Below are positions 3,570-32,970 of a stretch of DNA of 41,413 nucleotides, one piece after another. The notes below the pieces were generated by a model. It was not told the DNA's origin and did no database searches. It saw only the letters and a program-made list of their open reading frames with translations. Position 1 is the first letter of the stretch, and each line of letters starts with the position of its first letter. The DNA is from a virus (taxonomy: Duplodnaviria > Heunggongvirae > Uroviricota > Caudoviricetes): the IMG/VR virus record IMGVR_UViG_2541047940_000004, positions 1 through 41,413 of that record, one strand, 5' to 3'. The translations under genes and the position numbers were made by a program.

Positions 3570-4538
3570 TCAGTAGTTATGTACTGAAGGAGGTAATTCT
3601 TTATTCTTAAGTCTTATCCATGCGGAAAGATTCGTTGGTCCGTCTGGCTCATTGATATCAACATCTCGTGTGTGGTTGATTAAAACGTCTCTCGCCATTC
3701 CGATAACATACGAGAATTCATGACCGTAGTCGTAGCATCTGCCGGAATAGTTCGATTGAATTTGTTTCAGCGCCGGATACAATTCGCGGAATAATGCCTG
3801 TGAGCGGTTGGCATAATCCCATAACCATACAAGGCTGTTTGCTTCTTTTGCAGAAAGCTCGTTTGCTTTCTTCTCTTGTTTGCCGATTAACTCGCCTTCA
3901 AGCACTACCCTGTGGATGTACTCTACGGCTTGCGGTATCTGAGATGCATCAAGCTCTTCAATACTTTCCACATTGAAACGCTGATGAATCATTGCATAAG
4001 CTTCTGGGTACATTAGATGCTTTTTGCTGACTAGCATATTTACAGCATCACGAAGCGGAGTCCTGTCATCAACAGATGTTTTCTTACGTGCATTTTCTGC
4101 CTTTCCCTTTGTCCAGTAGTCATGCAGTACAGTAAAGCATTCTTCCTGGTACTGAATCAGTTTATCACGGATGTCAGCACGAACTTTCTCAGGGTTGATG
4201 CTGATCAGCCATCCATTTAACTTCTTCAAAGGAAGGCATAGTAGCTTACGAAGCTTCCCATCAGCGGCAACCATGTTCATATGAACACAGTTGAATTTGC
4301 TAATCTGCTTCATGAGTTTTGTTTGCTGCGTTGACCAGCTCATTCCAAGGTTTTCAACGATTGGCTTCATCGCAACATATGCAACTCCGGCAGCCATGGC
4401 GGTGATAATTTGCTGACCGTTGAATGGTACATAAGAGGTGTTCACTGCTTCTAAAATTGCTATACTATTCATGTTGGTTTTTCTCCACGGATTTACTGAC
4501 AACCGAAGCCCTGACTGTTCCCGCAGTTGGGGCTTCAC
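3570..4538 (-). CDS. ant: Antirepressor Ant
   Basis: Position downstream of arc in the immI operon; ORF start at 4538 overlaps the stop of the upstream ORF (ATGA); alternative start at 4472 (MNSIAIL..., preceded by GGAG) gives 300 aa, the size I recall for P22 Ant. Confidence 0.8.
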
Positions 4539-4756
4539 TGTTTTTGTAAGTCACTGTAGTTATAAAGCCACTGACCACTCATTCTTGCTTTGATTGACTC
4601 TACTGAATCACGGCAAGGAATGATTCCACCTGACATCATTCTGATCTCCGTAAATTCACCGCTCCTTATCGACTCAATGCCATTAACGTTAACTAAAGAT
4701 TTACCTCTACCAAGTGCATTCTCATAGCCAATCTCATCAACCTCAATAAACCTCAT
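4535..4756 (-). CDS. Hypothetical 73-aa protein inserted between arc and ant
   Basis: ORF with ATGA overlap to the arc stop and to the ant alternative start; AGGGG-type RBS upstream; no P22 counterpart at this position as far as I recall. Confidence 0.5.
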
Positions 4757-23265: not shown

Positions 23266-23341
23266 TGGTGCTGGTTAACGGACTTGAACCGCTACCCATT
23301 CGCTTACAAGGCGACCGCTCTACCATTGGAGCTAAACCAGC
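23266..23341 (-). tRNA. Phage-encoded tRNA-like gene, anticodon UGU (Thr)
   Basis: Hand-folded cloverleaf: 7-bp acceptor GCTGGTT/AACCAGC, D-stem GCTC/GAGC, anticodon loop CUUGUAA (U33, A37), T-arm AGCGG-TTCAAGT-CCGTT, discriminator A plus CCA; one G-A mismatch at the base of the anticodon stem. Confidence 0.6.
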
Positions 23342-23346
23342 ATATT

Positions 23347-23421
23347 TGGCGGGACAGCGTGGACTCGAACCACGATAAGAAGGTTAACAGCCTTCCGTAA
23401 TGACCTTTATACGACTGACCC
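23347..23421 (-). tRNA. Phage-encoded tRNA-like gene, anticodon GUU (Asn)
   Basis: Hand-folded: acceptor GGGTCAG/CTGTCCC (one U-U mismatch), anticodon arm GAAGG-CUGUUAA-CCTTC, T-arm CGTGG-TTCGAGT-CCACG, CCA end; D-stem imperfect. Confidence 0.5.
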
Positions 23422-30388: not shown

Positions 30389-30503
30389 TTGTTAATTTTC
30401 CTATATTGATATTGAGTTATAGCGGCACACCCAATGGATTTGCCGCTGATGTTTGCTCACCCTGTTAGAGGTGAAAGGCCAGAACTGTTAAAGAGCAATT
30501 TGC

Positions 30504-30689
30504 TTATGCCACTTGGCGGTAAGCACTTTCTTGATACTTCAGGGCGCCAGCTGTAACAATTTCCAATCGATAGGCGTCTTTCTCTGGGATAACTTCTTTC
30601 CACTGAGAGACTGCTGCATCGCTAATGCCTAGTGCTTTAGCAACAGCACGCTGGGTTCCGAAGTGGTCAATAACATCTTTTTTGTACAT
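30504..30689 (-). CDS. cro: Cro repressor (P22-type)
   Basis: 61 aa MYKKDVIDHFGTQRAVAKALGISDAAVSQWKEVIPEKDAYRLEIVTAGALKYQ... matches P22 Cro from memory. Confidence 0.85.
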   Translation of the reverse strand: MYKKDVIDHFGTQRAVAKALGISDAAVSQWKEVIPEKDAYRLEIVTAGALKYQESAYRQVA

Positions 30690-30769: not shown

Positions 30770-31420
30770 ATGAATACACAACTGATGGGTGAGCGTATTC
30801 GCGCTCGCAGAAAAGAACTCAAGATTAGGCAGGCTGCCCTTGGCAAGATGGTTGGCGTGTCTAATGTTGCTATTTCCCAATGGGAGCGATCTGAAACTGA
30901 GCCCAATGGCGAAAACCTATTGGCCTTAGCCAAGGCTTTGCAGTGCTCCCCTGATTACCTGTTGAAAGGAGAGGATAGTCTTTCAAACATTGCCTATCAC
31001 AGCAGGCATGATCCAAGAGGTTCGTATCCTCTAATTAGTTGGGTAAGCGCAGGATGTTGGATGGAAGCTGTAGAGCCATATCATAGGCGTGCAATAGATA
31101 ACTGGTACGACACAACGGTAGATTGTTCTGAAGACTCTTTTTGGCTCGATGTTAAAGGCGACTCAATGACTGCCCCGGCAGGACTGAGTATTCCTGAGGG
31201 GATGATTATTCTCGTCGACCCAGAAGTCGAACCACGTAATGGAAAGCTGGTAGTTGCCAAACTTGAAGGAGAAAACGAGGCGACATTCAAAAAGTTAGTT
31301 ATTGATGCCGGTAGAAAATTCCTGAAACCACTCAATCCACAATACCCAATGATTGAAATCAATGGGAACTGTAAAATCATTGGCGTTGTCGTTGATGCCA
31401 AGCTAGCAAACCTTCCTTAA
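30770..31420 (+). CDS. c2: C2 repressor (P22 immunity repressor, LexA-like autocleaving)
   Basis: 216 aa; near-identical to P22 C2 as recalled (MNTQLMGERIRARRK...GVVVDAKLANLP). Confidence 0.9.
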   Translation: MNTQLMGERIRARRKELKIRQAALGKMVGVSNVAISQWERSETEPNGENLLALAKALQCSPDYLLKGEDSLSNIAYHSRHDPRGSYPLISWVSAGCWMEAVEPYHRRAIDNWYDTTVDCSEDSFWLDVKGDSMTAPAGLSIPEGMIILVDPEVEPRNGKLVVAKLEGENEATFKKLVIDAGRKFLKPLNPQYPMIEINGNCKIIGVVVDAKLANLP

Positions 31421-31440
31421 GGGGCTTTCGCCCCTTTTTT
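31421..31440 (+). terminator. Rho-independent terminator after c2
   Basis: GGGGC-tttc-GCCCC followed by TTTTTT. Confidence 0.6.
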
Positions 31441-31509: not shown

Positions 31510-31538
31510 TTGACCAATAAATTAAGAGGTCTTAAATT
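31510..31538 (+). promoter_or_regulatory. pL-like promoter overlapping OL operator
   Basis: TTGACC, 17-bp spacer, TAAATT; operator palindrome AATTAAGAGGTCTTAAAT at 31519-31536. Confidence 0.5.
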
Positions 31539-31734
31539 TAAGCCATCGGCAGGACGCCGGAAGCCAAACGGAACAGATTGGCGGGCTCTTTAACATCGAC
31601 GAACTCTCAACCTAACCGTTGAGACCAGAACTTGAGTGGTTTTGGGGATGGCGCGAATTGCAGCTGCAAGACAGCGATCGAGAAGATAAGCACCTCGACG
31701 CGTCATGCGCCAAAGCCACTTAAAGGAGACCATC

Positions 31735-32040
31735 ATGGTAACCATTGTCTGGAAAGAATCCAAAGGTACGGCAAAAAGCCGCTACAAAGCTCGCAGAGCA
31801 GAACTTATTGCCGAGCGACGCAGTAATGAAGCACTGGCGCGAAAAATTGCGCTAAAGCTCTCTGGTTGCGTCAGAGCAGACAAAGCAGCTTCACTAGGAA
31901 GCCTTTGCTGCAAAAAGAAAGAAGAAGTCGTTCGAAAAAATAGAAGTATTTATTACAAGGATTCAAACCCATTAGGAAACAAAATACATGCAGTCCAAAA
32001 AATAAAATTGTACAGTAAACTGCCGTACGGTGCTTATTGA
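31735..32040 (+). CDS. N-like antiterminator
   Basis: First gene of the leftward early operon; arginine-rich motif KSRYKARRAELIAERRSNEALARK; start at internal Met MVTIVW of the track ORF. Confidence 0.65.
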   Translation: MVTIVWKESKGTAKSRYKARRAELIAERRSNEALARKIALKLSGCVRADKAASLGSLCCKKKEEVVRKNRSIYYKDSNPLGNKIHAVQKIKLYSKLPYGAY

Positions 32041-32042
32041 GT

Positions 32043-32381
32043 ATGCTTATGGTGAAAAAGACTATTTATGTTAATCCTGACCGCGGACAAAACAGAAAAG
32101 TATCTGATAGAGGTCTTACATCTCGGGACAGGAGGAGAATAGCGAGATGGGAAAAGAGGATAGCATATGCATTAAAAAACGGTGTAACAACTGGATTTAA
32201 TGCTATAGATGACGGTCCTGAATATAAGATTAATGAAGCCCCAATGGACAAAGTTGACAAAGCATTAGCAACACCATTTCCTCGCGATGTCGAAAAAATT
32301 GAAGATGAAAAATATGAGGATGTAATGCACAGAGTTGTTAATCACGCTCACCAACGAAATCCAAATAAAAAATGGTCATAG
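32043..32381 (+). CDS. Hypothetical basic protein (moron at the N 3' end)
   Basis: ORF beginning at or just after the N stop; AT-rich; followed by its own terminator. Confidence 0.5.
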   Translation: MLMVKKTIYVNPDRGQNRKVSDRGLTSRDRRRIARWEKRIAYALKNGVTTGFNAIDDGPEYKINEAPMDKVDKALATPFPRDVEKIEDEKYEDVMHRVVNHAHQRNPNKKWS

Positions 32382-32402
32382 CCCACTTCGGTGGGTTTTT
32401 TA
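32382..32402 (+). terminator. Rho-independent terminator
   Basis: CCCAC-ttcg-GTGGG tetraloop hairpin followed by TTTTTTA. Confidence 0.6.
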
Positions 32403-32410
32403 TTGTCTGA

Positions 32411-32512
32411 ACTAACAGAATTTATTACAGCAAGCCACGCAGCGAAGTGGGTGTGACTTGTGTTGGTCGCCAAAAGCAACGCGGAAAATCAATTCCAGCT
32501 TATTACGATTGA
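32411..32512 (+). pseudogene. Remnant of an N-gene 3' end (lambda N C-terminus-like)
   Basis: Short open frame translating TNRIYYSKPRSEVGVTCVGRQKQRGKSIPAYYD, resembling the lambda N C-terminus (...YSKPGERGITCSGRQKIKGKSIPLI) as recalled; no start codon, preceded by a terminator. Confidence 0.5.
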
Positions 32513-32520
32513 GGTGAGAT

Positions 32521-32970
32521 ATGGAAGAGCAAGCAAACAAGATTCTCGTAGAACTACTGCAAAAAGCCAGTAATGGAATAGACGCGGCTGTTTCATTTAG
32601 CCAGGCACAGATTCCTGATGTTGTTCATCAGTTGCTGCTATGGAATATGGTTGACAGTCTGATTAAAACATTAATGGCCATTCTAACAATCCCACTGGTT
32701 TTCTGGTTTATGAAGAAGCAGTGCCAAAGAGTTGAGACAGGTAAAATCGGTGATGAAGGATATTCATGGGAGAAAGGAAATCCCAAATACAGGCCGACAA
32801 TGGTTTGGGATAGCAAAGGTGATATTAATCTTCTTATCATGCCATTGGTTGGAGTTTTGACTCTGTGGGGGATTTTTATTATTGGTGTAGTAACCAATAT
32901 GACTTGGTTAAAAATTTGGCTGGCCCCAAAGCTTTACCTTATCGAATATGCAGCATCATTGGTTAAGTAA
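32521..32970 (+). CDS. Predicted inner-membrane protein in the SieB-equivalent position
   Basis: 149 aa with two long hydrophobic segments; GAGGTGA RBS; early-left operon downstream of N. Confidence 0.55.
   Translation: MEEQANKILVELLQKASNGIDAAVSFSQAQIPDVVHQLLLWNMVDSLIKTLMAILTIPLVFWFMKKQCQRVETGKIGDEGYSWEKGNPKYRPTMVWDSKGDINLLIMPLVGVLTLWGIFIIGVVTNMTWLKIWLAPKLYLIEYAASLVK

Follow-up and report, generated by a model that had tools for sequence, protein, structure and literature searches.

A probable nun module in the 3' end of a mosaic N gene, followed by an orphaned N tail

The IMG/VR virus record IMGVR_UViG_2541047940_000004 (Caudoviricetes) was analysed over its whole length of 41,413 nucleotides (nt), hereafter the window. 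Region 31735-32512 most probably belongs to a lambdoid (P22-like) prophage and represents its nun module, which is set in the 3' end of the antitermination gene N. The comparisons described below suggest multi-step recombination around a long-lived module, and not one recent insertion into the N gene of the window. Our confidence in this explanation is good. The four elements recognised in the initial annotation, that is, N, a cargo open reading frame (ORF), a terminator and a startless N-like frame, are all where it had placed them, and the sequences quoted there are correct. The components of the region are as follows.

31735-32040, plus strand: N gene (whole), 101 amino acids (aa), ending ...NRSIYYKDSNPLGNKIHAVQKIKLYSKLPYGAY and a stop
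31735-31930, plus strand: phage-21-type body of N (arginine-rich motif, ARM, and central region, aa 1-65), 97.3% nt identity
31931-32040, plus strand: Salmonella-phage-type C-terminal segment of N ('X-type'), also the nun leader, in frame, with TGA at 32038-40
31988-32016, plus strand: PNun, predicted constitutive nun promoter inside N codons, -35 box ATGCAG at 31988-93, -10 box TACAGT at 32011-16
32043-32381, plus strand: nun, predicted transcription-arrest and superinfection-exclusion factor, 112 aa from ATG, 114 aa from TTG at 32037
32380-32403, plus strand: intrinsic terminator of nun, a GC-rich hairpin of 7 base pairs (bp) at 32380-32397 and a T tract
32404-32421, plus strand: spacer and right-hand junction zone, linking the nun cassette to the N remnant
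32414-32512, plus strand: orphaned C-terminal remnant of N, startless, 32 codons and a stop

The cargo ORF, which starts two bases past the N stop, is by sequence nun, the transcription-arrest and exclusion factor of HK022. A homology search with its product gave the family phrog_5632, 'Nun-like transcription termination factor', as a full-length match (E 6.8e-70, 1-112 of 112), and chain N of PDB 6ALG, the cryo-electron microscopy structure of RNA polymerase with Nun, was matched with E 3.3e-69. For residues 22-47, the match is the Nun peptide bound to boxB in 1HJI (1HJI_B, E 5.9e-11). The gene is 96% identical to that of HK022 in nt and 97% in aa, and both the ARM and the C-terminus, …HRVVNHAHQRNPNKKWS, are the same. 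Residues D29, R30, R31, R32, R35 and W36 of the ARM, H101/H103, and K109, K110 and W111 are invariant across the Nun family (10 homologues). The protein is predicted to carry the lambda-boxB-binding ARM and to bind RNA through it. Nun arrests transcription downstream of lambda nut sites, blocking lambda (PMC4496710, PMC5386594). The residues needed for arrest are, in HK022 numbering, H98, K106/K107 and W108, and ~100 nM is quoted as the level of Nun in lysogens (PMC5386594). Pfam, NCBIfam and PADLOC have no entry for Nun. The insert had initially been described as a moron; it is indeed a promoter-gene-terminator unit, but its gene is the classical nun and not an unknown moron.

Beyond the nun terminator, the frame 32414-32512 reads NRIYYSKPRSEVGVTCVGRQKQRGKSIPAYYD up to its stop. 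In the N family profile phrog_271 it is aligned to the C-terminal positions 142-172 of 176 (E 5e-11), and it shares 29/32 aa and 87/99 nt with the 3'-terminal part of the HF4s N gene, which is intact. The resemblance to the lambda N C-terminus, which had been noted initially, is genuine: the score is 87, compared with 21 +/- 3.9 for shuffles, none of the 2000 shuffles reaches 87, and the closest alleles are of the HF4s/N7 and phage 21 types. The intact N of HF4s ends …KQNRIYYRKPRSEMGVTCSGRQKQRGKSIPAYYD and a stop, and 8 bp later there begins the same gene for a protein with a transmembrane (TM) helix that follows the remnant in the window. Since HF4s N directly adjoins this gene, HF4s represents the empty site. 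The frame has no start codon, it differs from the frame of nun, and both an in-frame TGA (32408-10) and the terminator precede it. Its stop overlaps the ribosome-binding site (RBS) GAGGTGAG of the next gene, as in intact N. The remnant is therefore read as a dead leftover that would not be translatable as part of any gene.

The homology between window-type and HK022-type sequences downstream of nun ends after AACAGAAT (32414-32421), and the right-hand breakpoint is resolvable only to ~32404-32422. The initial annotation had pointed to a motif shared by both sides near the junction. This 10-nt motif, ATTTATTACA, does occur twice (31948-57 and 32420-29) as part of a direct repeat with 16/20 identity, but it is not a signature of insertion: both copies encode the homologous N residues I-Y-Y, and the right-hand copy is TTTACTACC or AATTACTACC in relatives. 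Since the codons are homologous and vary among relatives, the repeat reflects the homology of two N tails and not a target-site duplication. On the same grounds TTTATTACA was rejected as a target-site duplication. Insertion by a transposon or an integrase was rejected as well, as the unit contains neither terminal inverted repeats nor a recombinase gene.

The N gene itself is, by sequence, a mosaic in which a phage-21-type RNA-binding and central part is joined to a Salmonella-phage-type C-terminus. The window is 97.3% identical in nt over 31560-31930 to the N regions of phage 21, DE3 and lambda imm21, and this homology ends at 31930. The phage 21 N peptide of PDB 1NYB has the same sequence as N residues 8-29, and N as a whole matches phrog_271 (E 4.6e-31, residues 1-99). 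The Pfam domain N_peptide (PF25694) scores 18.4 bits, under its cutoff of 27.9 bits, so that Pfam taken alone would not assign the protein. Phage 21 differs in that the last 36 residues are not of the Salmonella-phage type, ral comes right after N, and nun is absent.

The X-type segment encodes EVVRKNRSIYYKDSNPLGNKIHAVQKIKLYSKLPYGAY and a stop. A homologue search with the 44-aa tail gave 2 fragments, and tblastn against a phage collection was used instead; it found ES18 gp54 (E 3e-8), BTP1 N and L/ST64T gp24. These share the motif YxDxNPLGNKIHAVQ(K/R)xKLxSK with the window and are 66-77% identical in aa over 30-38 residues. The N gene of ES18 ends …YHDANPLGNKIHAVQRIKLNSKPLI and a stop; 20/25 aa and 53/75 nt are identical, the codon differences comprise 11 synonymous and 5 non-synonymous ones, and the base changes comprise 16 GC-to-AT and 2 AT-to-GC ones. 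The 3' end of N is AT-rich, as had been noted initially: the GC content is 0.309 (0.31) in 31931-32040, 0.378 in nun and 0.465 in the whole window. In contrast, the Salmonella-phage alleles have other ARM and central regions, end …SKPLI or …SIPAYYD, and lack nun (absent from all three of ES18, L/ST64T and BTP1), the AT enrichment and the PNun hexamers. The N-gene homology stops near 32021 (…SK), and 32022-32040 (LPYGAY and the stop) is nun leader, so nun was joined three codons ahead of the ancestral N stop. The homology to HK022 starts at 31923, ~120 bp before nun, and the same DNA, from this point on, stands ahead of nun in HK022.

The tail aligns to the end of the phrog_271 profile and to functional Salmonella-phage N tails, although its last residues are LPYGAY and not PLI. 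We conclude from these alignments that it is a bona fide allele of the N C-terminus and not makeshift AT-rich sequence. The idea that the insertion had supplied a replacement 3' end for N holds inasmuch as a different tail does travel with the cargo gene, but this tail is a Salmonella-phage-type allele in its own right. The mosaic N is likely functional, given that the tail matches those of viable Salmonella phages and that synonymous differences exceed non-synonymous ones (11:5). The N genes of phages mEp235, mEpX1 and Kapi1 are 99% identical to it in aa, and the viability of these phages argues for a working N.

The hexamers of PNun are those of the annotated 'nun gene promoter' of phage O276 (HK022 early-left region), with the same sequence and register. 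At the corresponding places the N gene of ES18 has ACGCAG and AACAGC. King et al. in 2000 reportedly observed promoter activity of PNun in HK022 and expression of nun from the repressed HK022 prophage. The hairpin of the terminator has the stem AGCCCAC/GTGGGTT and the loop TTCG, and is followed by TTTTTTATT; its energy is -10.3 kcal/mol. A scan of the region found 7 terminator-like sites, compared with 1.5 expected. Locus L095 has the same architecture, with an X-type-tailed N, nun, terminator and N remnant, and its Nun is only 65% identical in aa. The promoter block 31981-32021 (37/41, 90%) and the terminator (21/24, 88%) are better conserved between this locus and the window than the remaining N tail (58%) and nun (69% in nt), and this footprint supports the prediction that PNun and the terminator are both functional.

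Some variation of the terminator was observed. The HK022 allele has a compensatory change in the stem (CCCGC/GCGGG). A mosaic boundary lies within nun near 32352 (window 32340-32400 compared with HK022, locus L002, and strain CUPF09, L007). The last ~10 nun codons and the terminator exist in two alleles that are ~20% different, through synonymous changes and the compensatory stem change, and the rest of nun is ~97% identical. In the lineage of PA28 (L006, 1676-2350; also L014, L015), Stx1a phages and prophages of Shiga toxin-producing E. coli (STEC), the terminator stem has decayed (CCCACTTCGATAGA; -3.8 kcal/mol, z 0.5), and PNun transcripts may run on into downstream genes. A 1-nt deletion extends N of this lineage to 112 aa, overlapping the nun start. 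The window also contains a 15-nt inverted repeat (13/15) formed by the 5' arm of the terminator (32382-32396) and the remnant codons S-E-V-G (32437-32451). It is probably fortuitous, and it needs an M-to-V change specific to the window.

The module is widespread. Phages mEp235, mEpX1, Kapi1, PDP110P1 and PA28, along with a dozen Stx1a phages, have N, nun and remnant sequences 90-98% identical in nt to those of the window, and the order N, nun, terminator, remnant is the same in all. The GenBank records of mEp235 and mEpX1 have 'antitermination protein N' and 'Nun' annotated, and the remnant is unannotated in every record examined. Unlike in the window, the remnant of the mEp235-type phages ends with a 21-type tail and other genes come next; within the remnant, at 32475, the window stops resembling mEp235 and continues with the tail and gene of the HF4s type. 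The 5426 complete E. coli genomes include 213 with N and nun, 194 with the nun-terminator-remnant junction, and 118 with the HK022-type nun end and downstream sequence. The locus survey covered 69 IMG/VR loci and one Escherichia sp. contig, and its remnant search required an open frame; the same junction was found in at least 55 of the 69 loci. The initial annotation had proposed an insertion within N by recombination. The orphaned N 3' end downstream bears this out, but with these counts the event is neither recent nor specific to this phage.

The remnants of the clade of the window all begin at the same N codons (I-Y-Y), with 12 point-variant junctions among the IMG/VR loci. Their 3' ends are of the 21 type (…QKMKLGSKPLI) or the HF4s type (…QKQRGKSIPAYYD), each with the stop, and several different genes follow. 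The upstream contexts vary as well. A 21-type N occurs with a remnant in at least 45 loci, an HF4s-type N body with an X-type tail, nun and remnant in 3 loci (L020 and L085 among them), and an HK022-type startless relic with nun and remnant in L065 and L072. Remnants are absent from HK022, HK75 and O276, which have the N relic and nun, and from L083 and strain CUPF09, which have 21-type N and nun. Every combination exists, with 21-type N, HF4s-type N or the N-less HK022-type relic upstream and either the remnant or the HK022-type sequence downstream.

More distant Nun homologues were found next to other N tails. In L084, L095 and L096, Nun is 65-66% identical and is preceded by a P22-type N and orf147 (L084) or by N with an X-type tail (L095, L096); the terminator is followed by a lambda-type remnant, YKQPGERG(I/V)TCSGRQKMKG(R/K)SIPLI and a stop, with the junction five codons later. 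In L090 and L092-L094, Nun is 60-65% identical, there is an HK022-like putL and no N, and the remnant VERKNHRTWYKDANPFGNKIHAVQKSRGKSTPLI with its stop follows directly or past an extra ORF, with the junction eight codons earlier. In L087 (Nun 58%, HK022-like putL), ~12 nt of N-like sequence follow the terminator.

These loci showed some further features. In the put-type loci L090 (Citrobacter braakii MTJW01000031, 594-1603) and L092-L094, the startless N tail begins at VERKN, directly or past a 97-aa ORF; it is called as a 47-aa gene in L093 and L094, and L090 also has a separate Phage_N_antitermin gene (Pfam PF26859) further downstream. Locus L091 (Logan ERR3406188_276, 1300-2940) combines an HK022-like putL, a Nun homologue (60% aa) and an overlapping 97-aa ORF in one early-left operon, together with a full N with a lambda ARM, 70% identical to lambda N, and a KDSNPFGNKIHAVQK-type tail. 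A conserved 147-aa ORF accompanies divergent nun genes, upstream of nun in L084 (726-1169) and between nun and the terminator in L087 (1558-2001). In Salmonella phage UPF_BP1 (L012, 606-1299), an HNH endonuclease ORF sits where the 5' two-thirds of N would be, and a 58-aa C-terminal 'gp24' is annotated; this may be another N split by an inserted gene.

The nun module of HK022 (Oberto 1989, King 2000, Kang 2017/PDB 6ALG) also has a 120-bp leader with the PNun hexamers and a homologous terminator, and nun is the first or second gene of the pL operon in both genomes. However, the HK022 leader is a startless relic preceded by putL, with no N, whereas in the window it codes in frame for the C-terminus of a full N. 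HK022 further differs in having the other allele of the nun 3' end and terminator, and IS903 instead of the remnant downstream. The relic upstream of HK022 nun corresponds to the X-type tail but has no start codon; a Y codon has become C, and TGG stands in place of the stop. Further N sequence upstream of the relic was rejected, as the best match was an 11-mer, reached by 18 of 500 shuffles with the window N and 286 of 500 with phage 21 N. IS903 lies ~65 bp downstream of nun in HK022 (L002 ~2060-2110), and the corresponding sequence of CUPF09 (L007 3190-3260) and L083 is uninterrupted; distally it runs into a very common lambdoid segment, which 2228 of the 5426 E. coli genomes contain. N fragments on one or both sides of nun appear, from these comparisons, to be a trait of the family.

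The orientation and the signals of the early-left operon bear on how the module would work. The cro gene is on the minus strand (30504-30689) and a c2/cI-type repressor gene is on the plus strand (30770-31420), so the early-left operon is oriented left to right. The following features flank the module.

31419-31436: terminator of the repressor gene, preceding the pL-like promoter
31510-31538, plus strand: pL-like early-left promoter, TTGACC-17-TAAATT, 9/12 consensus matches, between the repressor terminator and nutL
31585-31624, plus strand: nutL, with boxA GCTCTTTAA at 31585-31593 and a phage-21-type boxB hairpin at 31605-31624
32521-32970, plus strand: downstream gene, TM-helix protein, phrog_3054 (E 4e-64)

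The position of the pL-like promoter is that of the annotated pL of phage 21. The boxB of nutL is an exact match to CTCAACCTAACCGTTGAG at 31606-31623, and the site aligns with the annotated boxA-L and nutL of phage 21. The nutR site on the minus strand (boxA ~30486-30496, with a boxB stem-loop just downstream) is also of the 21 type and matches the annotated phage 21 site. In DNA of N residues 1-65, nutL and nutR the window and phage 21 are 97% identical, and the ARM peptides are the same. No lambda-type boxB, the possible target of the resident Nun, was found anywhere in the window with up to 2 mismatches. Because N, nutL and nutR are of the 21 type and a lambda boxB is absent, the resident phage should be spared and lambda-type invaders should be blocked. 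Robert et al. are said to have found in 1987 that Nun is active at the nut sites of lambda and not at those of phage 21 or P22.

The gene at 32521-32970 encodes a 149-aa predicted membrane protein, has no match in Pfam, NCBIfam or PADLOC, and is the natural right-hand neighbour of N in HF4s. Elsewhere in the window, the sar antisense RNA (Rfam RF00262, 87.7 bits) at 4473-4539 on the plus strand corresponds to a P22-type immI region, and a tRNA-Thr(TGT) and tRNA-Asn(GTT) pair lies at 23266-23421 on the minus strand. The window has the appearance of a complete genome of a P22-like prophage or phage.

By analogy with HK022, in a lysogen the weak constitutive PNun in the last N codons would transcribe nun alone, and the transcript would be halted by the hairpin directly after nun. 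The ARM of Nun would bind lambda-type boxB RNA, its C-terminus would be wedged into RNA polymerase, and transcription of a superinfecting lambda-type phage would be arrested. The resident phage would be immune to its own Nun through the phage-21-type N, nutL and nutR. Upon induction, transcripts from pL would acquire N at nutL, pass the nun terminator and the remnant, and reach the delayed-early genes.

The module may have originated through slightly out-of-register, largely non-homologous crossovers of collinear lambdoid genomes, of which the viable products were kept. By one crossover, the nun leader would have become attached to an N gene three codons short of the N end. Another would have joined the DNA just past the nun terminator to the middle of the N tail of a second phage, so that this tail was duplicated as a dead remnant. 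Later homologous recombination in the N-derived flanks and in nun would have moved the module among N alleles and renewed the remnant from intact N. Lambdoid mosaicism is said to arise by illegitimate recombination and selection, a view ascribed to Juhala et al. (in 2000) and Hendrix. Like lambdoid morons, nun has its own promoter and terminator, a deviant base composition, junctions at or near gene ends and small duplications, and it sits between genes that are adjacent in a relative (HF4s); by this likeness, its expression from the prophage would be expected. Unlike in morons, the left junction is three codons inside N, the promoter is shared with the coding sequence of an essential regulator, and the right junction has left a 32-codon duplicate of the N tail.

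Multi-step recombination is suggested by the occurrence of all context combinations and of remnants behind Nun homologues of 60-66% identity. Several observations weigh against this explanation or limit it. A generic promoter scan did not call PNun, whose -35 box is weak. The activity of PNun, the exclusion of lambda by Nun and the insensitivity of 21-type nut sites are all carried over by analogy from work on HK022. The frame is open as far as the original stop in every remnant seen, which could point to a function and not to repeated renewal, though 32 codons are too few for a test of this. Present-day sequences are compatible with more than one order of the recombination events, and the three remnant junctions may have arisen independently or may go back to a single old junction that was later shortened by deletions.

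One alternative is that a single recent event inserted a cassette of replacement N tail, cargo gene and terminator into an intact 21-type N, creating both junctions at once. The geometry is suggestive, as 21-type homology ends at 31930 where HK022-type homology has already begun at 31923, and only ~20 bp of 21-type N are absent between the junctions, as would fit homology-facilitated illegitimate recombination. However, the right junction is common to all remnant-bearing relatives examined, including lineages of only ~88-90% identity (PA28 and the related Stx1a-phage and STEC prophages), and it occurs with HF4s-type N bodies as well. Remnants also follow the 60-66% Nun homologues in other upstream contexts (put RNA, orf147), so the right-hand junction type is older than the present left-hand context. 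With all upstream and downstream combinations on record, and with L090 and L092-L094 looking like an N-less ancestor with nun and remnant, we consider a single recent insertion unlikely. If the N 3' end had been duplicated in tandem within one phage, nun had then been inserted between the copies and the upstream copy had diverged in place into a promoter, this would explain the direct repeats that the N tails form on either side of nun (16/20 identity over their 5' ends, both starting from about I-Y-Y). The remnants of the put-type relatives are of the KDANP...GNKIHAVQK type, like the upstream tail of the window. But the upstream tail is 71% identical in nt and 80% in aa to independent Salmonella-phage N genes, and resembles the 21-type tail only weakly (score 34, shuffle mean 17). 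With the remnant 88% identical in nt to intact HF4s N, the functional copy would need to have changed far more than the dead one, and the Salmonella-phage matches suggest separate origins of the two copies. The duplication seems improbable.

The remnant might itself have a function, by providing the next gene with an RBS or with a signal for translational coupling, by acting as an RNA element, or as a selected homology arm through which the nun cassette gets into and out of N genes. The remnants found by the search that required a frame, in around 55 of the nun-bearing loci examined, are all open to the original N stop; at a divergence of a few per cent, however, chance alone would leave 32 codons open. 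That its stop overlaps the RBS of the next gene, that mosaic breakpoints fall inside it and that many different genes follow it would suit such a role; against this, it is startless, it stands behind an in-frame stop and directly behind a terminator, and an RBS needs only the last ~10 nt. It is absent from HK022, CUPF09 and L083, and reduced to ~12 nt in L087. A functional remnant is accordingly improbable, about on a par with the duplication and perhaps slightly ahead of it. A chance resemblance to N, or an artefact of ORF calling, is for practical purposes refuted: nothing but the short length and the missing start codon speaks for it, and it is contradicted by the profile match, by the near-identity to HF4s in synteny and by the shuffles.

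A more specific reading is nearly as probable as its opposite. The N-derived flanks would make nun a homology-flanked portable cassette that enters, swaps among and precisely leaves N genes of different specificity; PNun would have been born of a few AT-ward point changes and kept under a double constraint as protein and promoter, and the state of HK022, which lacks N, depends on put RNA and is the textbook exception among lambdoid phages, would be secondary. The -10 change from AACAGC to TACAGT gives an N-to-Y change in …KLYSK. The HK022 leader is an N relic, and put-type loci have N tails downstream of nun, which would mean that nun and N were linked before put replaced N.

The nun gene, its promoter, its terminator and its mechanism were already known, and the pair of N and nun is already annotated in public phage records. 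In the searchable literature we found no description of the orphaned N tail, the mosaic N, or the derivation of PNun and the HK022 nun leader from an N gene; older subscription papers (Oberto 1989, Juhala 2000) lie outside its reach, and a prior description there is possible. In RefSeq the pair, found in ~3.6% of complete E. coli genomes, is labelled 'hypothetical protein', 'regulator' or 'transcriptional regulator'. The known workings of Nun or N are unchanged by this locus, whose value is in annotation and in a modest evolutionary point on HK022. Naming the genes indicates that many STEC and commensal prophages, including Stx1a phages, would carry a lambda-specific exclusion factor. As a scar left by the shuffling of phage genes the locus is ordinary, though very clear. 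It makes an unusually legible record of mosaic formation, with a gene tail duplicated at an out-of-register junction, a promoter in coding sequence and a remnant still serving as a crossover site, and evidence that HK022 descends from N-bearing ancestors.

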